Origin: Mobula hypostoma
Taxonomy: Eukaryota
DNA length: 64,000 nt
Assembly (NCBI RefSeq): GCF_963921235.1
Contig: NC_086108.1
Location: forward strand, 76,882,001-76,946,000
Direction of reading: 5' to 3'
Position 1 is the first letter of the stretch. Each line of letters begins with the position of its first letter. The notes under the pieces were generated by a model. It did not search any database. It was not told the origin of the DNA and worked only from the letters and a program-made list of their open reading frames with translations. The position numbers were made by a program, and so were the translations under genes. This document shows positions 20,916-59,990 of the stretch, piece by piece.

Positions 20916-22488
20916 TTAGCGGAAGTTAGAGAAGTCGATGTTCATGCCATCAGGTTGGAGGCTACCCAGACGGAATATAAGGTGTTGTTCCTCCAACCTG
21001 AGTGTGGCTTCATCTCCACAGTAAAGGAGGCCATGGACAGACATGTCAGAATGGGAATGGGATGTGGAATTAAAATGTGTGGCCACTGGGAGATCCTGCT
21101 TTCTCTGGCGGACAGAGCGTAGATGTTCAGCAAAGCGGTCTCCCAGTCTGCGTCGGGTCTCACCAATATATAAAAGGCCACATCGGGAGCACCGGACGCA
21201 GTATATCACCCCAGTCGACTCACAGGTGAAGTGATGCCTCACCTGGAAGGACTGTTTGGGGCCCTGAATGGTGGTAAGGGAGGAAGTGTAAGGGCATGTG
21301 TAGCACTTGTTCCACTTACACGGATAAGTGCCAGGAGGGAGATCAGTGGGGAGGGATAGGGGGGACGAATGGACAAGGGAGTTGTGTAGGGAGCGATCCC
21401 TGCGGAATGCAGAGAGGGGGGGGAGGGAAAGATGTGCTTAGTGGTGGGATCCCGTTGGAGGTGGCGGAAGTTACGGAGAATAATATGTTGGACCCGGAGG
21501 CTGGTGGGGTGGTAGGTGAGGACCAGGGGAACCCTATTCCTAGTGGGGTGGTGGGAGGATGGAGTGAGAGCAGATGTACGTGAAATGGGGGAGATACGTT
21601 TAAGAGCAGAGTTGATAGTGGAGGAAGGGAAGCCCCTTTCTTTAAAAAAGGAAGACATCTCCCTCGTCCTAGAATGAAAAGCTTCCTCCTGAGAGCAGAT
21701 GCGGCGGAGACGGAGGAATTGCGAGAAGGGGATGGCGTTTTTGCAAGAGACAGGGTGAGAAGAGGAATAGTCCAGATAGCTGTGAGAGTCAGTAGGCTTA
21801 TAGTAGACATCAGTGGATAAGCTGTCTCCAGAGACAGAGACAGAAAGATCTAGAAAGGGGAGGGAGGTGTCGGAAATGGACCAGGTAAACTTGAGGGCAG
21901 GGTGAAAGTTGGAGGCAGAGTTAATAAAGTCAACGAGTTCTGCATGCGTGCAGGAAGCAGCGCCAATGCAGTCGTCGATGTAGCGAAGGAAAAGTGGGGG
22001 ACAGATACCAGAATAGGCACGGAACATAGATTGTTCCACAAACCCAACAAAAAGGCAGGCATAGCTAGGACCCATACGGGTGCCCATAGCTACACCTTTA
22101 GTTTGGAGGAAATGGGAGGAGCCAAAGGAGAAATTATTAAGAGTAAGGACTAATTCCGCTAGACGGAGCAGAGTGGTGGTAGAGGGGAACTGATTAGGTC
22201 TGGAATCCAAAAAGAAGCGTAGAGCTTTGAGACCTTCCTGATGGGGGATGGAAGTATATAATGACTGGACATCCATGGTGAAAATAAAGCGGTGGGGGCC
22301 AGGGAACTTAAAATCATCGAAAAGTTTAAGAGCGTGAGAAGTGTCACGAACATAGGTCGGAAGGGATTGAACAAGGGGTGATAAAACAGTGTCGAGGTAT
22401 GCAGAAATGAGTTCGGTGGGGCAGGAGCAAGCTGAGACAATAGGTCGGCCAGGACAGGCAGGTTTGTGGATCTTGGGTAGGAAGTAGA
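20916..22488 (-). pseudogene. Penelope RT + GIY-YIG endonuclease ORF (5'-truncated, single frameshift)
   Basis: YFLPKIHK, GRPIVS, GVAMG and RYIDD RT motifs. Adding 1 nt in the G8 run at 21416-21423 joins the RT to a linker with CKWNKCYTC and to VIYCVRCSRCGLLYIGET (GIY-YIG). Confidence 0.9.
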
Positions 22489-22865
22489 TTGGAGGTTGGA
22501 GGAACAACACCTTATATTCCGTCTGGGTAGCCTCCAACCTGATGGCATGATCATCGACTTCTCTAACTTCCGCTAAGGCCCCACCTCCCCCTTGTACCCC
22601 ATCTGTTACTCATTTCTATGCACACATTCTTTCTCTCACTCTCCTTTTTCTCCCTCTGTCCCTCTGAATATACCTCTTGCCCATCCTCTGGGTCACCCCC
22701 CCCTTGTCTTTCTTCCCAGACCTCCTGTCCCATGATCCTCTCGTATCCCCTTTTGCCTATCACCAGTCCAGCTCTCGGCTCTATCCCTCCCCCTCCTGTC
22801 TTCTCCTATCATTTTGGATCTCCCCCTCCCCCTCCAACTTTCAAATCCCTTACTCACTCTTCCTT

Positions 22866-22907: not shown

Positions 22908-23687
22908 CACCTCTTTCTATAGATGCTGCTTGGCCTGCTGCGTTCACCAGCAACTTTGATGTATGTTGCTTGAATTTCCAGCATCTGCAGAATTCCTGTT
23001 GATTGAGTATAGGAGTTGGGATGTAAAGTTGAAATTGTATAAGGCATTGTTGAGACCAAATTTAGAGTATTGTGTACAGTTCTGGTCACCGAATTATAGG
23101 AAAGTTGTCAATAAAATTGAGGGAGTACAGAGGAGATTTATTAAAATGTTGCCTGGGTTTCATCTCCTAAGTTACAGAGAAAGGTTGAACAAGTTAGGTC
23201 TTTATTCTTTGGAGCGTAGAAGGTTGAGGGGGGACGATAGAGGTATTTAAAATTATGAGGGGGATAGATAGAGTTGATGTGGATAGGCTATTTCCATTGA
23301 GAGTGGGGGAGATTCAAACAAGAGAACATGAATTGAGAGTTAAAGGTGAAAAGTTTCAGGGTAACATGAGGGCGAACTTCTTTACTCAGAGAGTGGTAGC
23401 TGTGTGGAACGAGCTTCCAGCAGAAGTGGTTGAGGCAGGTTTGATGTTGTCATTTAAAATTAAATTGGATAGATATATGGACAGGAAAGGAATGGAGGGT
23501 TATGGGCTGAGTGCAGGTTGGTGGGCCTAGGTGAGAATAAGAGTTCGGCACGGACTAGAAGGGCCGAGGTGGCCTGTTTCCATGCTGTAATTGTTATATG
23601 TTATATTGTATATGGTCCTCGAGTTGAGATTCTAAATTTGGGTAAAGCCAATTTTGATGGTATCAGAAAGGAACCGGTGAGTGTGAA

Positions 23688-23950
23688 TATTTATTTATTT
23701 ATTGGGATACAGTGCAGAATAGGTTGTTCCGGCCTTTTAAGCCATGCTGGCCAGCAATACCCTGATTTAATCCTAGCCAAATCATGGGACAATTTACAAT
23801 TAACCTACCAATTGGTAAGACTTTAGACTGTAAATGACTTTGGAGCACCCGGAGGAAATCCATGTAGTTACGGGGACAACGTACAAAGTTCTTATCGGCA
23901 GTACAGGAATCGAACCCCTGCCACCTGTACTGTAAAGTGGTGTGCTCCCA
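23688..23950 (-). mobile_element. V-SINE/HE1-like tRNA-derived SINE
   Basis: Minus strand has GGGGTTCGATTCC B-box, ATTTCCTCCGGGTGCTCC V-domain and a (TAAA)n tail. Confidence 0.75.
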
Positions 23951-25746
23951 TGATTGGAATAGGTTGTTTTCTGGCGATGGTGTACTTGGTAAGTGGGAGG
24001 CCTTCAAAGGTGAGATTTTGAGAGTACAGGGTTTGTATGTTCCTGTTGGAAGAAAGGCAAGGATAACAGGTTTAGGGAACCTTAACTTCCAAGAGATAAT
24101 GAGGCCCTGATTTTGAAGAAGAAGGAGATGCATTGCAGATAGAGACAGGAAGAAACAAATACCCTTATTTCCTCAGAGTATAAAAATGCGAGAGAACACT
24201 TAAGTAGGAAATCAGGGGGGCTAAAAGAAGACATGAGGTTTCTCCAGCAGACAAGGTGAAGAAGAATTCCAGGGGCTTCTACACGTATACTAAGAGCAAA
24301 AGGATACCAAGAGACAAAATTGGTTATCTTGAAGATCAGAGTGGTTATCTATGTGCGGAGCTGAAAGAGATGGGGGAGGTCTTAAGTTGATTGTTTTTTG
24401 TATCTGTATTTACTTGGGAGATGTACACAGACTTTGTAAGTCCAAGGAAATGCAGCAGTGAGGTCATGGACCCTGTACAAATTACAGTGGAGGAAGAGGT
24501 GTGTGCTGTCTTAAGGCAAATTAGGGTGGATAGATCCCCAGGGTCTGACAAGGTGTTTCCTTTTACCCTATGGGAGGCTGGTGCAGACATTGTAAGAGCC
24601 CTATCAGATATTTCAAACATCTTTAGCCTGGAGTTAGGTGCTGTAGAATTAGAGGATAGCTAATGTTCAGTTGTTTAAGAAAGAGTGTAAGAACAAGCCA
24701 AGAAATTTTGAGCTGGTGTACCTGACATCAGTAATGGGAAAGTTATTGGAAGGTACTCTAAGAGACCAGATATATAAGTATTTGGAAAGTCAGGGACTGG
24801 TTAGGGATAGTCAACAAGGCTTTGTGTGTGGTAAGTCATGTATAACCAATCTTATAGAGTTTTGGGAGGAAATTACCAGGAAAGTTGATGAAGGTAAATC
24901 AGTGGATGTTGTCTACTTTGAGTTTAACAAGGCCTTTCACAAGATCCCACATGGGAGGTTGGTCATGAAGTTTCAGTGCCCTGGCATTCAAGATGAGGTC
25001 ATAAATTGGATTAGACATTGGCTTTGCGGAAGAAGCCAGAGAGTGATTGTAGTTGGTTGCCTCTCTGACTGAAGGCCTGTGACTAGTGGAGTGTATCAGG
25101 GATCGGTACTGGGTCCATTGTTGTTTGTCATCAATATCTGGATGATAATGTGGTAAACAGGATCAGCAAATTTGCAATGACACCAAGATTGAGGTGCAGT
25201 GAACAGCAAGGAAGACTATAAAAGCTTGCAGCAGGATCTGGACCAGTCGGTAAAATGGCTTGAAAAATGGCAAATGGAATTTAATGCAGACAAGTGTGAA
25301 GTGTTGCACTTTGGGAGGGCTAACTAGGGTAGGTCTTACACAGTGAGAGGTAGGGCACTGAGGAGTGCGGTGGAACAGAGGGATCTGGGAAGACAGATCC
25401 ATTATTCCTTGAAGGTGGCATCACAGGTGGATAGTTTTGTGAAGAAAGCTTTTGGCACATTGGCCTTCGTAAATCAATGTATTGATACAGCAGTTGGGAT
25501 GTTATGTTGAAGTTATATAAGACATTGGTGAGGCCTGCTTTGGAGTATTTTATGCAGTTTTGGTCACCTAACTAAAGGCAAGATGTAAATAGATTGAAGG
25601 AGTGCAGAGAAAATTTCCAAGGATGTTACCGGGACTTATGGACCTGAGTTAGAAACATAGAAACATAGAAAATAGGTGCAGGAGTAGGCCATTCGGCCCT
25701 TCGAGCCTGCACCGCCATTTATTATGATCATGGCTGATCATCCAAC

Positions 25747-28746
25747 TCAGAACCCAGCCTTCCCTCCATACCCCCTGACCCCTGTAGCCACAAGGGCCAT
25801 ATCTAACTTCCTTTTAAACATAGCTAATGAACTGGCCTCAACAGTTTGCTGTGGCAGAGAATTCCACAGATTCACCACTCTCTGTGTGAAGAAGTTTTTC
25901 CTAACCTCGGTCCTAAAAGGCTTCCCCTCTATCCTCAAACTGTGACCCCTCGTTCTAGACCTCCCCAACATCGGGAACAATCTTCCTGCATCTAGCCTGT
26001 CCAATCCCTTTAGGATCTTATACGTTTCAATCAGATCCCCCCTCAATCTTCTAAATTCCAACGAGTACAAGCCCAGTTCATCCAGTCTTTCTTCATATGA
26101 AAGACCTGCCATCCCAGGAATCAATCTGGTGAACCTTCTTTGTACTCCCTCTATGGCAAAGATGTCTTTCCTCAGATTAGGGGACCAAAACTGCACACAA
26201 TACTCCAGGTGTGGTCTCACCAAGGCCTTGTACAACTGCAGTAGTACCTCCCTGCTCCTGTACTCGAATCCTCTCGCTATAAATGCCAGCATACCGTTCG
26301 CCTTTTTCACCGCCTGCTGTACCTGCATGCCCACTTTCAATGACTGGTGTATAATGACACCCAGGTCTCGTTGCACCTCCCCTTTTCCTAATCGGCCACC
26401 ATTCAGATAATAATCTGTTTTCCTATTTTTGCCACCAAAGTGGATAACTTCACATTTATCCACATTAAATTGCATCTGCCATGAGTTTGCCCACTCACCC
26501 AACCTATCCAAGTCACCCTGCATCCTCTTAGCATCCTCCTCACTGCTAACACTGCCACCCAGCTTCGTGTCATCCGCAAACTTGGAGATGCTGCATTTAA
26601 TTCCCTCATCCAAGTCATTAATATATATTGTAAACAACTGGGGTCCCAGCACTGAGCCTTGCGGTACCCCACTAGTCACCGCCTGCCATTCTGAAAAGGT
26701 CCCGTTTATTCCCACTCTTTGCTTCCTGTCTGCTAACCAATTCTCCACCCACACCAATACCTTACCCCCAATACCGTGTGCTTTAAGTTTGCACACTAAT
26801 CTCCTATGTGGGACCTTGTCAAAAGCCTTTTGAAAATCCAAATATACCACATCCACTGGTTCTCCCCTATCCACTCTACTAGTTACATCCTCAAAAAATT
26901 CTATGAGATTCGTCAGACATGATTTTCCTTTCACAAATCCATGCTGACTTTGTCCGATCATTTCACCGCTTTCCAAATGTGCTGTTATCACATCCTTGAT
27001 AACTGACTCCAGCAGTTTCCCCACCACCGACGTTAGGCTAACCGGCCTATAATTCCCCGGTTTCTCTCTCCCTCCTTTTTTAAAAAGTGGGGTTACATTA
27101 GCCACCCTCCAATCCTCAGGAACTAGTCCAGAATCTAACGAGTTTTGAAAAATTATCACTAATGCATCCACTATTTCTTGGGCCACTTCCTTAAGCACTC
27201 TGGGATGCAGACCATCTGGCCCTGGGGATTTATCTGCCTTCAATCCCTTCAATTTACCTAACACCACTTCCCTACTAACATGTATTTCGCTCAGTTCCTC
27301 CATCTCACTGGACCCTCTGTCCCTTACTATTTCTGGAAGATTATTTATGTCCTCCTTAGTGAAGACAGAACCAAAGTAATTATTCAATTGGTCTGCCATG
27401 TCCTTGCTCCCCATAATCAATTCACCTGTTTCTGTTTGCAGGGGACCTACATTTGTCTTTATCAGTCTTTTCCTTTTTACATATCTATAAAAGCTTTTAC
27501 AGTCCGTTTTTATGTTCTCTGCCAGTTTTCTCTCATAATCTTTTTTCCCCTTCCTAATTAAGCCCTTTGTCCTCCTCTGCTGAACTCTGAATTTCTCCCA
27601 GTCCTCAGGTGAGCCACTTTCTCTGGCTAATTTGTATGCTACTTCTTTGGAATTGATACTATCCCTAATTTCTCTTGTCAGCCACGGGTGCACTACCTTC
27701 CTTGATTTATTCTTTTGCCAAACTGGGATGAACAATTGTTGTAGTTCATCCATGCAACCTTTAAATGCCTGCCATTGCATATCCACCGTCAATCCTTGAA
27801 GTGTCATTTGCCAGTCTATCTTAGCTAATTCATGTCTCATACCTTCAAAGTTACCCCTCTTTAAGTTCAGAACCTTTGTTTCTGAATTAACTACGTCACT
27901 CTCCATGTTAATGAAGAATTCCACCATATTATGGTCACTCTTACCCAAGGGGCCTCTCACGACAAGATCGCTAATTAACCCTTCCTCATTGCTCAAAACC
28001 CAGTCCAGAATAGCCTGCTCTCTAGTCGGTTCCTCGACATGTTGGTTCAAAAAACCATCCCGCATACATTCCAAGAAATCCTCTTCCTCAGCACCTTTAC
28101 CAATTTGGTTCACCCAGTCTACATGTAGATTGAAGTCACCCATTATAACTGCTGTTCCTTTATTGCACACATTTCTAATTTCCTGTTTAATACCATCTCC
28201 GACCTCACTACTACTGTTAGGTGGCCTGTACACAACTCCCACCAGCGTCTTCTGCCCCTTAGTGTTACGCAGCTCTACCCATATCGATTCCACATCTTCC
28301 CGGCTTATGTCCTTCCTTTCTATTGCGTTAATCTCTTTTTTAACCAGCAACGCCACCCCACCTCCCCTTCCTTCGTGTCTATCCCTCCTGAATATTGAAT
28401 ATCCCTGAACGTTGAGCTCCCATCCCTGGTCACCCTGGAGCCATGTCTCTGTGATCCCAACTATATCATAATCATTAATAACAATCTGCACTTTCAATTC
28501 ATCCACCTTATTACGAATGCTCCTTGCATTGACACATAAAGCCTTCAGGCACTCTTTTACAACTCTCTTAGCCCTTTTTAATGCTTGCCCTGGATTTGTC
28601 GGCCTGCCACTTTTACTTTTCCCCTTTGTACTTTTTGCTTCTACGCTCACTTTACACCCCTCTGTCTCTCTGCACTGGTTCCCATCCCTCTGTTGTGAAC
28701 TAACCTCCTCACACCTAGCCGCTTTAATTTGATTCCCACCCCCCAA
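25747..28746 (-). CDS. CR1 ORF2: APE endonuclease + reverse transcriptase
   Basis: NARS, ITETWL, YRPP, MGDFN and SDHN endonuclease motifs; SPGPDG, NYRPVSLTS, YLDFQKAFD, GVPQGSVLGP and KFADD RT motifs. The listed start is a TTG; the real start is uncertain. Confidence 0.93.
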   Translation of the reverse strand: MGGGNQIKAARCEEVSSQQRDGNQCRETEGCKVSVEAKSTKGKSKSGRPTNPGQALKRAKRVVKECLKALCVNARSIRNKVDELKVQIVINDYDIVGITETWLQGDQGWELNVQGYSIFRRDRHEGRGGGVALLVKKEINAIERKDISREDVESIWVELRNTKGQKTLVGVVYRPPNSSSEVGDGIKQEIRNVCNKGTAVIMGDFNLHVDWVNQIGKGAEEEDFLECMRDGFLNQHVEEPTREQAILDWVLSNEEGLISDLVVRGPLGKSDHNMVEFFINMESDVVNSETKVLNLKRGNFEGMRHELAKIDWQMTLQGLTVDMQWQAFKGCMDELQQLFIPVWQKNKSRKVVHPWLTREIRDSINSKEVAYKLARESGSPEDWEKFRVQQRRTKGLIRKGKKDYERKLAENIKTDCKSFYRYVKRKRLIKTNVGPLQTETGELIMGSKDMADQLNNYFGSVFTKEDINNLPEIVRDRGSSEMEELSEIHVSREVVLGKLKGLKADKSPGPDGLHPRVLKEVAQEIVDALVIIFQNSLDSGLVPEDWRVANVTPLFKKGGREKPGNYRPVSLTSVVGKLLESVIKDVITAHLESGEMIGQSQHGFVKGKSCLTNLIEFFEDVTSRVDRGEPVDVVYLDFQKAFDKVPHRRLVCKLKAHGIGGKVLVWVENWLADRKQRVGINGTFSEWQAVTSGVPQGSVLGPQLFTIYINDLDEGIKCSISKFADDTKLGGSVSSEEDAKRMQGDLDRLGEWANSWQMQFNVDKCEVIHFGGKNRKTDYYLNGGRLGKGEVQRDLGVIIHQSLKVGMQVQQAVKKANGMLAFIARGFEYRSREVLLQLYKALVRPHLEYCVQFWSPNLRKDIFAIEGVQRRFTRLIPGMAGLSYEERLDELGLYSLEFRRLRGDLIETYKILKGLDRLDAGRLFPMLGRSRTRGHSLRIEGKPFRTEVRKNFFTQRVVNLWNSLPQQTVEASSLAMFKRKLDMALVATGVRGYGGKAGF

Positions 28747-28751
28747 CCATT

Positions 28752-29075
28752 CTAGTTTAAAGTCACCTCAGTAGCCCTCGCTAATCTCCCTGCCAGGATA
28801 TTGGTCCCCCGAGGATTTAAGTGTAACCCGTCCTTTTTGTACAGGTCACACCTGCGCCAAAAGAGGTCCCAATGATCCAAAAACTTGAATCCCTGCCCCC
28901 TGCTCCAATCCCTCAGCCACGCATTTATCCTCCACCTCATCGCATTCCTACTCTCACTGTCGCGTGGCACAGGCAGTAATCCCGAGATTACTACCTTTGC
29001 GGTCCTTTTTCTCAACTCCCTTCCTAGCTCCCTATATTCTTCTTTCAGGACCTCATCCCTTTTCCTACCTATGTC
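28752..29075 (-). CDS. CR1 ORF1 C-terminal fragment (SGNH esterase-like)
   Basis: DIGRKRDEVLKEEYRELG...VVISGLLP...DGLHLN motifs typical of CR1 ORF1 esterase; truncated at the GxND block. Confidence 0.85.
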   Translation of the reverse strand, partial: DIGRKRDEVLKEEYRELGRELRKRTAKVVISGLLPVPRDSESRNAMRWRINAWLRDWSRGQGFKFLDHWDLFWRRCDLYKKDGLHLNPRGTNILAGRLARATEVTLN

Positions 29076-30229
29076 ATAGGGAAAAGTTGAATAGGTTAAG
29101 ACTTTATTCTGAAGAATGTAGATTAAGGGGAGATTTGATAGAGATATACAAAATTATGAGGGGTATAGATAGGGGAAATGCAAGCAGGCTTTCTCCACTG
29201 AGGTGGGGTGGAAGACGAAATGTTTAAGGGGAACATGAGGGGGATCTTCTTCATTCAGATGGTGGTGAGAGTGTGGAATGAGCTGCCAGTGCAAGTGGTG
29301 AATGTGGGGTCAATTTCAACATTTAAGAGAAACTAGGGTAGGTAGATGGATGAGAGAGGTATGGAAGGTTTCAGTCTGAGTGCAGGTCGATAGGACTGAG
29401 CAGATTAATGTGTTGGCTCAGAATAGATAGTCTGAAGGTTCAGCTTCTGTGCTGTAGTGTTCTATGACTCTGGTTCTTTAATACTGTGGGCTGAAGGGTC
29501 TGGTCTTGTGCTGTACTTGTCTTTGTTCTATTGTTTTATGTAACTGCTTCAGCTGCACGCAATAAACTCTTCCTCAGTGCTAAGTTTGCTGATTTGATTT
29601 GCCCTGTCCATATGAAGATTAAAGTTGCCTTTGATTACAGTGCCTTTGTTGCAAGACCCCATTATTTCTTTATTTACACTCTGCTCTAGAATATAACTAC
29701 AGTTGGGGAGTGGCCTGTAGACCATTTTCTTTCAGTGACTTCTTCCCTTTACTTATTAATATTTCCACCAAACTAATTTTACATCTTCATCTTCTGACCT
29801 AAAACTATTTCTCAGTACCACATTGATCTCACTTTCATAAACAAAACCATTGAACTTCTTTTCCCTTGTTCCCTACCCTTCTGAAATTAAAGTACCTTAG
29901 AATTTTAGTTTTAACATTGTAACCTTATTGCTACATCTCCATGGTGCTATAAGGTAATATAATTTACTTCTATTTGTGCTATGGATTTGGACAAGGACAG
30001 CAGGCCCATGAAAGTAATGAAAATTAAATATATATTGCAGACTCTTAATTGTTGCTGGACGTTATCTTGGTGTTTCTACCTAATAATACTCTGGAAGTCC
30101 CTTCCTAGCAAGAAGTTCATTAAGGTAGTTTACTACCACCATTTTGAATACATTGTAGAGGACCCTGCCAGCATTTTTCACATCCTGTAAATGAATTAAT
30201 AGTCTTTTCTTAAATTATTGTGCAGTACA

Positions 30230-34889: not shown

Positions 34890-36458
34890 AACTTGGTGGC
34901 CACTTTGTTAGGTACAGGAGTGGAACCAGGAGTGGTTTTCTGCTGCTGTAGCCCATCCACTTCAAAATTCAATGTGTTGTGCAGTCAAAGGTGCACTTCT
35001 GCACACCACTGTTGTAACGCATGGTTAGTCATAGTCATAGTCATACTTTATTAATCCCGGGGGAAATTGGTTTTCGTTACAGTTGCTCCATAAATAATAA
35101 ATGGTAATAGAACCATGAATAGTTAAATAGTAATATGTAAATTATGCCAGTAAATTATGAAATAAGTCCAGGACCAGCCTATTGGCTCAGGGTGTCTGAT
35201 CCTCCAAGGGAGGAGTTGTAAAGTTTGATGGCCACAGGCAGGAATGACTTCCTATGACGCTCTGTGTTGCATCTCGGTGGAATGAGTCTCTGGCTGAATG
35301 TACTCCTGTGCCCACCCAGTACATTATGTAGTGGATGGGAGACATTGACCAAGATGGCATGCAACTTGGACAGCATCCTCTTTTCAGACACCACCGTCAG
35401 AGAGTCCAGTTCCATCCCCACAACATCACTGGCCTTACGAATGAGTTTGTTGATTCTGTTGGTGTCTGCCACCCTCAGCCTGCTGCCCCAGCACACAACA
35501 GCAAACATGATAGCACTGGCCACCACAGACTCGTAGAACATCCTCAGCATCGTCCGACAGATGTTAAAGGACCTCAGTCTCCTCAGGAAATAGAGACGGC
35601 TCTGACCCTTCTTGTAGACAGCCTCAGTGTTCTTTGACCAGTCCAGTTTATTGTCAATTCGTATCCCCAGGTATTTGTAATCCTCCACCATGTCCACACT
35701 GACCCCCTGGATGGAAACAGGGGTCACCTGTACCTTAGCTCTCCTCAGGTCTACCACCAGCTCCTTAGTCTTTTTCACAGTAAGCTGCAGATAATTCTGC
35801 TCACACCATGTGACAAAGTTTCCTACCGTAGCCCTGTACTCAGCCTCATCTCCCTTGCTGATGCATCCAACTATGGCAGAGTCATCCGGAAACTTCTGAA
35901 GATGACAAGACTCTGTGCGGTAGTTGAAGTCCGAGGTGTAAATGGTGAAGAGAAAGGGAGACAAGACAGTCCCCTGTGGAGCCCCAGTGCTGCTGATCAC
36001 TCTGTCAGACACACAGTGTTGCAAGCACACGTACTGTGGTCTGCCATGTGAGTTACTACCACCCTCCTGGCAAATTAAACTTAAGTGTGGCCATTCTCCT
36101 CTGACCTCTCTCATTAACAAGGTGTTAATGCTCACAGAACTACTGCTTATTGGACTATTATTTTGTTTATCGCACTATTCTCTGTAAACTCTAGAGACTG
36201 TTGTGTGTGAAAATCTCAGGAGATCTGCAGTTTCTGAGATACTCAAACCACCCTATCTGGCGCTCGTAATCATTCCATGGTTAAAGTCACTTAGATCATA
36301 CTTATTCCCCATTCTGATCTTTGGCCTGAGTAATAACTGAACCTCTTGACCACGTCTGCATGCTTTTATGTATTGAGCTTCTGCCACATGATGGCTGATT
36401 GGATATTTGTATTAACAAGCAGGTGTACATGTGTACCTAATAAAGTCTAAACTGTGTG
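34890..36458 (-). mobile_element. Internally deleted Tc1-derived element hosting the Rex1 copy
   Basis: Degenerate TIRs TA-aacttggtggccactttgttaggtaca and tgtacctaataaagtctaaactgtgtg-TA; body continues across the Rex1 insertion (ggtt|atgtgagttact). Confidence 0.7.
35026..36046 (-). mobile_element. Young Rex1/Babar LINE, 5'-truncated, RT C-terminal half open
   Basis: GAPQGTVLSPFLF, KFPDD (canonical FSDD/FADD), YKYLG, LYFLRRLRSF; (GACTAT)n tail. Confidence 0.88.
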
Positions 36459-57244: not shown

Positions 57245-59990
57245 AAAAGTTCAAAGTAAATTTATTATCAAAGTACATATATGTCATCATATATAATCCT
57301 GAAATTCATTTTACTTGTGGGCATACTCAATAAATCCAATAACCATAATAGGATCAATGGAAAACCACACCAACAGGGCAGACAACCAGTGTGCAAAAGA
57401 CAGGAAACTGTACAAATACAAAAAGAAAGGGAAAAAAACAACCAACCAAACAAATAATAGTCCTTGAAAGTGAGTTCATAGGTTGTGGGAACAATTCAGT
57501 GATGGGATAATTGAAGTTACCCTTCTGGTTCAATAACCTGATGGTTGAGGGGCAGTAACCGTTCCTGCACCTGGTGGTGGGAAAGGCTTTACCCACGATG
57601 GACTGGGCTGTATCCACTACTTTTTGGAGGATTTTCTGTTCAAGGGCTTTGGTGTTTCCGTACCAAGCAGAAATGCAGCTAGTCAATATACTCTCCTCCA
57701 CACATCTGTGGAAGTTAATCAAAGTTATAGATATCATTCTGAATCTTTGCAAACTCTTAAAGAAGTCAAGGCGCTGTCATGCTTTCTTCGTAACTGCTCT
57801 TGTTTGCGGGGCCCAGGACAGGCCTTCTGAAGTGATGACACCGAGGAATTTAAAGTTTCTGACCCCTTCTACCTCTGATCTCCCGATGAGGATTAGCTCA
57901 TGGACCTCTGGTTTTCTCCTCCTGAAGTCAATAATCAACTCCTTGGTCTTGCTGACATTAAATAAGAAGTTGTTGTGGAACCACAAATTTTCAGTCTCTC
58001 TCCTGCATGCTGATTGGTCACAACTTTTGATTCGACCTACAATAGTTGTGTCATTAGCAAACTTAAATATGCCATTAGAGCTGTGCTTAGCCTCACAGTT
58101 ATGTGTAAAAGTGAGTAGAGCAGGGGCTAGGCACACAGCCTTGTGCTGCACCTGTGCTGATGGCGATTGTGGAGATGTTGCCAATCCAAACTGGGGTCTG
58201 CAAGTGAGGAAATCGAGCATCCGATTGCACAAGGAGGTATTGAGGCCAAGGTCTTGAACTTTATTGATTAGTTTTGAGGGGGTGATGGGATTGAGTGCCA
58301 AGCTGTAGTCAATAAGCAGCATCCTGATGAATGCACCTTTGCTGTCCAGATGTTCCAGGGTTGAGTGAAGAGCCAATGAGATGGCATCTGCTGTGGATCC
58401 GTTGTGCTGGTAGGCAAATTGGAGCGGATCCAAATTGGTTCTCAGGCAGAAATTGATATGTTTCATCACCAACCTTTCAATTCATTTCATCACTGTGGAT
58501 GTAAGTGGTATTGGATGATAGTCATTGAGACAGATTACCCCGTGCTTCGGCACTGGTATAATTGAAGCTTGCCTTAAGCAGGTGGGTACCTCAGAATGCT
58601 GAAGTGAGAAGTTAAAGATCTCAGTGAACACTCTAGCCAGCTGATCAGCTTGGGTCTTTAGTACTTGGTCAGGTACCCTACCTGGGCCGGATGCTTTCCA
58701 TAGGTTCACCCTCCTGAAGGATGCTCTCACACTGGCCTCAGAGACTGAAATCACAGGATTATCAGAGGCTGTGGGAGTTGTTGATGGTTTTTCCATGTCT
58801 TGACGGTCAAAGAGAGCATAGAAGGCATTGAGCTCATCTGGAAGCGAAGCCCTTTTGTCACCTATGTCACTTGATTTCACTTTGGCAGAGGTAATAGCAT
58901 TCAACCTTGCCACACCTGTCAACTATCCTTCATTGATTCAAATTTAGTCCGGAATTGTAACTTTGCCTATGAGATGGCTTTCCGGAGATCGTGGCTGGAC
59001 CACTTGTAACTTTCTTGATTGCCAGATTTGAATATCTTTAATCTGGCCCTCGGCAGGTTGTGGAATTTATGGTTCATTCAGGGCTTCTGGTTGGGGACAC
59101 ACTCATTTACGACTTTTTATAAAGTACCTGACAACTGTGCTGTTTTCATTCAGATCCACAGAAGAGTTCTTGCACACAGCCCTGTCCACCGACTCGAAAC
59201 AATACGTTAGCCACTCCTCTGTCTCCTGCAACTACCCCTTTGTTGTCCTAATATCTGGAGCCTTGATCTTTAGCCTCTGCCTGAATGCAGGACAGCCAAA
59301 TGATCCAATTTCCCAAAGCGTGGTCTGGGCATGGAATGGTAGGCATTCCTTATCTTAGTATAGCAGTGGTCTAGTGCGTTGGGACCTTTGGTGCTACAGG
59401 TTATATGCTGATTTCTTCTAAAAAGCATAATTGAAATCCCTAATATGATTTGAAATATGTCAGGGTGGACTGTTTCTTTGGTGATGGCATCATCTGGTGC
59501 AGTATCTCAAGTGCCTGATTACAGTCAGCTGTTGGTGCTGTGTAAACTGCAGTCAGGATCACAGAGGAGACGTACCTTGATAAATAGAATAGTCAGCATT
59601 TAATAATTAGGTGTTCAAGGTTGAATCGCTAAGAAAATCGCCACATTGGAGCACCACAAAAAGTTTATCATGAAACACACATCTCCACCTTTTGCCTTTT
59701 CTGAGTCAGCAGTTCGGTCCATCCTGTGTATAGAGAGCTTCAGGTATGATCGCTGTATCTGGCATACTGTGAATAAGCCATGTCTCGGTAAAACACAGAA
59801 CTCAATAATTTCTCATTTCCCTTCAATACAGCAAATTTGCCCGTCAGGTCTTCAGTTTTGTTCTCTAGTGACTGCACATTTGCTAACAAGATGCTTGGTA
59901 GAGGGGGCCTCATTCCTCTGCATTTCAATCTGGCTTAGAGTCCCTCACCGCCTACCCCCCTCCCCCTGCCTCGCTTCTGGCCATGGCGAT
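57245..59990 (-). mobile_element. Long degenerate Rex1/Babar-like LINE (endonuclease to 3' UTR, with deletions)
   Basis: RPPLPSILLANVQSLENK (EN start), [29 protein letters not shown] and ESILTSCISAWYGN in several broken frames. Confidence 0.85.

Follow-up and report, generated by a model that had tools for sequence, protein, structure and literature searches.

A conserved in-phase U_UUA_AAC heptamer at the ORF1/ORF2 junction of CR1 elements supports a -1 frameshift interpretation

Canonical vertebrate CR1 elements are long interspersed nuclear elements (LINEs) with an SGNH esterase in their first open reading frame (ORF1), an APE endonuclease and a reverse transcriptase (RT) in the second (ORF2), short 3′ repeats, and frequent 5′ truncation (PMC13343379, PMC3905857); poly(A) is confined to Zenon (PMC13343379). 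Production of the second LINE protein is generally attributed to reinitiation, which is accepted for SART1, with its UAAUG junction, and for L1 (PMC2881922), although L1 ORF2 initiation has also been described as AUG independent (PMC5009743). In viral -1 programmed ribosomal frameshifting (PRF), as in the coronavirus infectious bronchitis virus (U_UUA_AAC) and in retroviral gag-pol, an in-phase X_XXY_YYZ heptamer ends a structural ORF and the polymerase lies in the -1 frame (PMC3542737, PMC5009743). Here, we analyze a 64,000-nucleotide stretch of Mobula hypostoma DNA (NC_086108.1, positions 76,882,001 to 76,946,000; "the window") carrying a young CR1 copy whose ORF1 ends on such a heptamer, taken in the zero frame as defined in PMC3542737. 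The heptamer, its phase, the adjoining stop codon, a -1-frame ORF2 without a usable AUG, and nucleotide conservation from rays to bird-like elements are all seen directly. These features support a frameshift interpretation of the junction, and programmed -1 frameshifting is probably the main or ancestral route to ORF2p in this CR1 family.

The element is read on the minus strand and has the following features, in window coordinates.

25650 to 29080, minus strand: young 5′-truncated CR1 LINE copy, inside an older CR1 on the opposite strand
28752 to 29078, minus strand: 3′ remnant of ORF1, comprising the final 108 codons of the SGNH/GDSL esterase domain (PF13472, E 6.8e-10), ending ...ATEVTLN*
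28768 to 28770, minus strand: UGA bounding the -1 frame, two codons 5′ of the heptamer (from the sequence)
28755 to 28761, minus strand: slippery heptamer U_UUA_AAC in ORF1 phase (TTTAAAC read in the sequence)
28752 to 28754, minus strand: ORF1 stop UAG, adjoining the heptamer; CUA (Leu) in the -1 frame (from the sequence)
28748 to 28750, minus strand: out-of-frame ATG with 8 codons in the third frame, where no ORF2 start is possible (from the sequence)
28735 to 28744, minus strand: two-patch G motif GGGGG-R/W-N-GGG, 10 nucleotides 3′ of the heptamer, a candidate stimulator (column tallies)
25747 to 28767, minus strand: ORF2 in the -1 frame, 1006 codons (ORF list and Pfam)
28141 to 28143, minus strand: first in-frame ORF2 ATG, codon 209 (IMGDFN), within the endonuclease match (sequence and Pfam)
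25650 to 25672, minus strand: 3′ end of short repeats, (TTTCTATG)2-3, without poly(A) (from the sequence)

Across the junction, the minus strand reads ...GAG GTG ACT TTA AAC TAG AAT GGT TGG GGG GTG GGA..., and ORF1 and ORF2 overlap by 16 nucleotides. Because the upstream UGA closes the -1 frame, a shift is limited to the last codons of ORF1. ORF2 encodes a linker of about 70 amino acids, an APE endonuclease (residues 93 to 279), and an RT (residues 566 to 783), as judged by Pfam matches to PF03372, PF14529, and PF00078. With its esterase ORF1 (PF13472), its APE and RT ORF2, and its short tandem 3′ repeats without poly(A), a kind of 3′ end typical of CR1, the element does not differ in architecture from canonical vertebrate CR1; the decoding signal is the addition. 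A preliminary description of this DNA had reported TTTAAAC at 28761 to 28755 and TAG at 28754 to 28752 on the minus strand, a -1 frame open for about 1,000 codons, a 16-nucleotide overlap holding the heptamer in phase, no ORF2 AUG before about codon 200, and a third-frame ATG at 28748 to 28750 that stops after 8 codons. Rereading the sequence and recomputing the frames bore out each of these (1006 codons from 28767 to 25747; first AUG at codon 209, inside the endonuclease match).

The window copy is 99.85% identical across 2021 nucleotides to a full-length copy (L002) but has neither the promoter nor the 5′ two-thirds of ORF1. The earlier inference that this CR1 makes a fusion protein must be amended accordingly: the mechanism would apply to the full-length copies of the family, and not to the 5′-truncated window copy. 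The complete ORF1p, taken from L002, is 311 amino acids long and shares 99% identity with a protein of Mobula hypostoma, and a protein search found homologs in sharks, rays, coelacanth, frogs, reptiles, and birds. The 5′ untranslated region of the young family consists of tandem monomers of about 170 bp in 1 to 3 or more copies (L002, 373 to 611; L030, 30 to 611), an arrangement that resembles rodent L1 promoters. The older, decayed CR1 copy that the young element interrupts (window 23002 to 25651 and 29078 to 29481, plus strand) is like L078, and no clear target-site duplication was seen.

A query of 401 nucleotides spanning the junction gave 1341 candidates in the genome, and the 40 that were scored were all about 100% identical. 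The junction is common to all 30 copies retrieved, one of which is the window copy; the full ORF1 frame is present in 11 of the 30, and ORF2 is open to the locus edge in 29. Since the junction itself served to select these nearly identical copies, they demonstrate no more than that its layout did not arise by accident in the window copy. The window's 128,000 positions contain 587 X_XXY_YYZ words, so that an in-phase word within a 16-nucleotide overlap is an event of about 1 to 2% per family, and the conservation of the heptamer goes well beyond this single-family chance. Some decayed copies do have their frames fused or shifted, as would be expected if the junction were a chance arrangement or an assembly or mutation artifact in which a single indel had split one ORF. 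The same layout is nevertheless found in the 30 near-identical copies, in six other ray families, and in bird-like elements; such conservation across copies and lineages rules this explanation out for practical purposes, leaving it a negligible probability.

For analysis of conservation at the DNA level, ray families were sampled with three diverged ORF1 proteins as queries, together with 54 metagenome-contig loci, labeled bird-like because their best matches are bird or bird-type ORF1 proteins. The ORF1 end was readable in 151 of the 194 loci; those excluded were 31 without a C-terminal match, 6 with matches that end early, and 6 at a contig edge. The readable loci formed 20 clusters by upstream DNA, with the heptamer left out of the clustering. 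A lineage was considered readable if at least one copy could be read cleanly between the DGLH motif and a stop 24 to 31 codons on, which gave 16 of the 20 clusters (7 ray and 9 bird-like). Junctions were anchored on the DGLH motif and the ORF1 stop, and per-lineage calls are majority codons.

Just upstream of the junction, ray and bird-like sequences are only 38 to 52% identical. The exact heptamer is nevertheless present in 14 of the 16 lineages, in agreement with the earlier proposal that heptamer and -1 phase should be kept in diverged relatives. The base preceding the Leu codon is T in all 16, under Ala, Gly, Asp, Thr, Cys, and Ser; the Leu codon is TTA in 15 and the Asn codon AAC in 15. 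At control Leu codons, TTA occurs in 1 of 16 lineages (DGLHL) and in none of 16 (the position 14 codons before the stop), and overall these elements use TTA for 75 of 551 Leu codons (14%) and AAC for 113 of 264 Asn codons. Given this codon usage, wobble T, TTA, and AAC would coincide by chance with a probability of about 0.023 per lineage, or about 5e-4 if only rays and birds are counted as independent. The ORF1 stop is UAG in 10 lineages and UAA in 6. The downstream ORF lies in the -1 frame and is open from the heptamer; among the multicopy families, the endonuclease is in that frame in 30/30, 25/36, 18/32, 14/20, 12/15, and 2/4 copies. Clean copies retain the heptamer in 30/30, 23/26, 12/18, 11/14, 13/14, and 4/4 cases by family, and its loss within families tracks family age, as neutral decay would. 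Readthrough of the ORF1 stop was considered and rejected, as frame 0 shuts after 1 to 34 codons in all 16 lineages. No CR1 relatives were found in the viral contigs or prokaryote genomes searched. Most of L083 to L134 are contigs of one metagenome assembly that stop inside or just past CR1 ORF1, which probably reflects how the data were assembled or filtered.

The C-termini of ORF1 proteins were also compared. A first search found an LN end in 69 of 83 proteins with the DGLH motif (from sharks, rays, coelacanth, frogs, turtles, squamates, and birds). Another 134 proteins came from a profile search, and of the 254 in total, 156 have the DGLH motif and a tail of 20 to 45 amino acids. Asn, with a frequency of 4%, is the terminal residue of 131 of these 156 esterase ORF1 proteins; because it is terminal across tails of 22 to 39 amino acids, it is linked to the stop rather than to fold register. 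The residue before it is Leu in 116, Gly in 8, Lys in 2, and another in 5 (Leu, Gly, or Lys in 126). A heptamer of the form X_XXA_AAC permits only Leu, Gly, Lys, or Pro at this position, and the observed residues would match UUA, GGA, and AAA. Gln, whose codons necessarily end in a purine, stands ahead of GN in 7 of 8 proteins and ahead of LN in 0 of 116, and residues with pyrimidine-only versus purine-only codons are found in a ratio of 29:2 before LN and 0:7 before GN/KN. This split fits the prediction for U_UUA_AAC versus G_GGA_AAC, and the QGN-ending group in particular would fit G_GGA_AAC. DNA for the QGN group was not found in the window's own genome, viral contigs, plasmids, or prokaryote genomes, the prokaryote matches to the QGN query (L215 and L216) being weak SGNH matches of 26 to 27%.

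Four frameshifted database proteins (P0037, P0058, P0141, and P0273) have FKL across the junction, one of them from a distant family with a 31-amino-acid tail; four longer database fusions are apparently gene-model chimeras. Some distant esterase ORF1 proteins (among P0169, P0194, P0214, P0217, P0112, and P0119) end in QFFH, LKDF, LGFC, RFFR, or EFFR, ends that could conceal U-type slip sites (G_GAU_UUU, G_GGU_UUU, or U_UUU_UUY). P0022, labeled a Pseudomonas aeruginosa SGNH hydrolase at NCBI, is a shark-type CR1 ORF1 protein and probably a contamination.

The motif might instead be kept for a reason other than decoding, as a C-terminal Leu-Asn or as a DNA or RNA binding site, with ORF2 expressed by splicing, from an internal promoter, or from a near-cognate start in the linker. 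The G motif and heptamer could form one protein-binding element, and when the wobble T is tested on protein data for the LN group alone, the test is weak, as buried helix positions also lack K, E, Q, M, and W. However, protein constraint does not fix synonymous codons, and Asn is terminal despite the variation in tail length. As for splicing, six lineages have UAA, so that the stop offers no conserved AG acceptor, and the region has no pyrimidine tract. We regard a nondecoding role as improbable.

Two G patches follow the heptamer in 14 to 16 of the 16 lineages, one spanning +10 to +14 and the other +17 to +19. Codon 7 of the -1 frame (Gly) is GGG in all 16 and codon 9 (Gly) is GGG in 13, versus 119 of 394 Gly codons in the ORF2 bodies; because Gly is encoded by GGG here so much more often than elsewhere, the constraint acts on the RNA. 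The preliminary description had placed a G-rich tract 6 nucleotides past the heptamer, which is correct for the window copy, whereas the part conserved across the lineages begins at 10 nucleotides (28744 to 28735). A duplex scan for distant sequences that could pair with the G motif turned up no 3′ partner in common. In some families a C-rich patch recurs roughly 650 nucleotides upstream, but it corresponds to the Pro codons of a conserved VPLxN motif and was rejected as a partner for that reason. At its 10-nucleotide spacing, the G motif may act as the stimulator, via a bound protein or a weak G-quadruplex, although this part of the model is more weakly inferred than the slip site itself.

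Several observations weigh against frameshifting. For folding, one real copy per cluster was used, with heptamer-bearing and longest-open copies preferred, giving 15 of 16 lineages (one was too short). No conserved hairpin was predicted 3′ of the heptamer (z from -1.5 to +1.9 in the 15 representatives, with pseudoknots outside the model), and a two-tier G-quadruplex was predicted in just 3 of 15; a downstream stimulator fold was thus found neither as a conserved hairpin nor as a robust G-quadruplex. At 5 to 9 nucleotides downstream, the window family has no stable stem-loop (-8.5 kcal/mol, z 0.4). The heptamer is missing in 2 of 16 lineages (L092 and L093, each a single decayed copy), and the four clusters left out of the 20 for want of a readable junction were L036 and L084, with TTTAAAC near the expected place, L108, with TTTAAAC out of register, and L097, with TTTAAAA. 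The lineages, being kin, are not independent of one another. Among the proteins, 25 of 156 have no terminal Asn. The dereplicated residue counts (16:1 for LN and 0:6 for GN/KN) are weaker evidence than their Fisher p of 7e-5, since the QGN proteins may represent a single clade, and internal xLN sites are likewise biased to pyrimidine-only residues (47:15). A weak search found no intact natural in-frame ORF1-ORF2 fusion. Lastly, an in-frame AUG lies within 2 nucleotides of the stop, at codon 4 or 5 of the -1 frame, in 7 of 16 lineages.

This last observation bears on termination-reinitiation at or near the ORF1 stop, using an AUG where one is present and, in the way proposed for L1, a non-AUG codon elsewhere, with the conserved letters serving as a termination or restart signal that mimics a slip site. 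The AUG rate is far above the 2% AUG frequency, and reinitiation is possible in those lineages: UAAUG occurs in ray family L175 to L194 (7/7 open copies) and in L112, UAG/UAA-NN-AUG in the bird-like L081, L082, L090, L092, and L120, and TTG at codon 5 in 3 further lineages. Moreover, ORF1 has been lost in many CR1s, so that an unfused ORF2p can work (PMC13343379). In the other 9 of 16 lineages, however, there is no such AUG. These include the window family, in which none of the 30 copies has an in-frame AUG before codon 209 and hence none 5′ of the endonuclease, as originally described; the lack of an early AUG does not extend to all lineages. Elsewhere among the rays, families have their first in-frame AUG at codon 19 or 39 or have none before the endonuclease. 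The position of the AUG is not conserved, whereas the heptamer is, and reinitiation gives no reason to expect a fixed wobble T, UUA, and AAC or the LN/GN/KN pattern. A UGGGA resembling the termination upstream ribosome-binding site (as defined in PMC3542737) lies 40 to 90 nucleotides upstream in only 3 of 16 lineages and 117 nucleotides upstream in the window family. The AUG at the stop may arise incidentally from the N-W-K-G pattern conserved past the stop, or it may be a real second route. Overall, we consider reinitiation unlikely as the general explanation, and the mixed case, an ancestral frameshift with reinitiation gained in some lineages, is counted with frameshifting. Ray family L175 to L194 has U_UUA_AAC together with an overlapping ORF2-frame UAAUG, and its ORF2 linker is close to that of the window family; this likeness suggests recombination or a recent gain or loss of the AUG.

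If -1 frameshifting operates at this junction, most ribosomes would terminate at UAG and yield the 311-amino-acid ORF1p. In a minority, the tRNA-Leu and tRNA-Asn on UUA AAC would re-pair one base back on UUU AAA, and the slipped ribosomes would decode CUA and continue (...VTLN-LEWLGGG...). U_UUA_AAC ranks among the most shift-prone heptamers (PMC5009743). The expected junction peptide would be ATEVTLNLEWLGGGNQIK or its LK form; under the tandem-slippage model the latter would read ...VTLKLEW in place of the ...VTFKLEW suggested before. The product would be an ORF1p-ORF2p (esterase-endonuclease-RT) fusion of about 1,313 amino acids (311 + 1002), and the ORF1p:ORF2p ratio would be set as gag:gag-pol is in retroviruses. 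The two-patch G motif might stimulate the slip, perhaps aided by slow termination at the adjoining stop. A broader scheme, which we offer tentatively, is that esterase-type CR1 elements, which are the principal retrotransposons in many vertebrates, have made this fusion by -1 frameshifting for >400 million years, driven not by a hairpin but by a G motif at 10 nucleotides that is G-quadruplex folded or protein bound (by a host G-tract binder or by ORF1p as feedback), with G_GGA_AAC or A_AAA_AAC in deeper lineages.

Were this so, the most widespread vertebrate LINE would make a Gag-Pol-like fusion, CR1 ORF2p annotations would have misplaced starts, and the esterase ORF1p, itself poorly understood, would be covalently joined to the copying enzyme. 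The signal is short, a conserved 30 nucleotides. Frameshifting has been suggested for a few other elements that lack long terminal repeats (non-LTR elements). The word "frameshift" does not appear in the main text of a 2026 survey of vertebrate CR1 (PMC13343379) or of the esterase structure paper (PMC3905857), and "CR1" does not appear in the first 300,000 of the 449,034 characters of the Atkins review, where L1 ORF2 is described in terms of initiation (PMC5009743). A full-text literature search, which did not extend to the original CR1 descriptions, turned up nothing published on frameshifting in CR1; those hits that were checked dealt with retroviruses or decayed copies, and absence from print is not established.

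Other elements lie elsewhere in the window, all on the minus strand. A Tc1/mariner (Sleeping Beauty-like) transposase fragment, open for 259 amino acids, occupies 2142 to 2921. An RT with a downstream ORF and a frame break at 20916 to 22609 is a probable Penelope-like element, its downstream ORF being presumably a GIY-YIG endonuclease. RT fragments with PF09004 at 35179 to 36174 and 57777 to 58847 are Rex1-like.

Compared with viral -1 PRF, the CR1 junction belongs to a non-LTR element, its stop adjoins the heptamer, no hairpin is predicted at 5 to 9 nucleotides, and a G motif lies at 10 nucleotides. Judged from its sequence, the junction would work like viral -1 PRF; because the stem-loop looked for was not found, it is not classed as classical hairpin-stimulated PRF. 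SART1 and L1 are likewise bicistronic LINEs, and 7 of 16 CR1 lineages share a UAAUG or nearby AUG with them, but neither is described with a slip site (PMC2881922), and the window CR1 family has no such AUG. In engineered -1 frameshift reporters stimulated by a G-quadruplex, UUUAAAC is also followed by G tracts, with an optimum of four G3 tracts at 6 to 8 nucleotides, whereas CR1 has two conserved patches at 10; that study leaves natural cases open (PMC3919603). [quoted passage not shown] The two signals are alike in being short, unstructured two-patch motifs with a 10-nucleotide spacer within 21 nucleotides of the slip site; they differ in having C patches in PRRSV and G patches in CR1, where a binding protein is hypothetical. 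The G motif may represent, in nature, a type of stimulator observed until now only in engineered reporters or, as C patches, in arteriviruses. By analogy alone, its layout resembles the PRRSV signal more than the engineered G-quadruplex stimulators.

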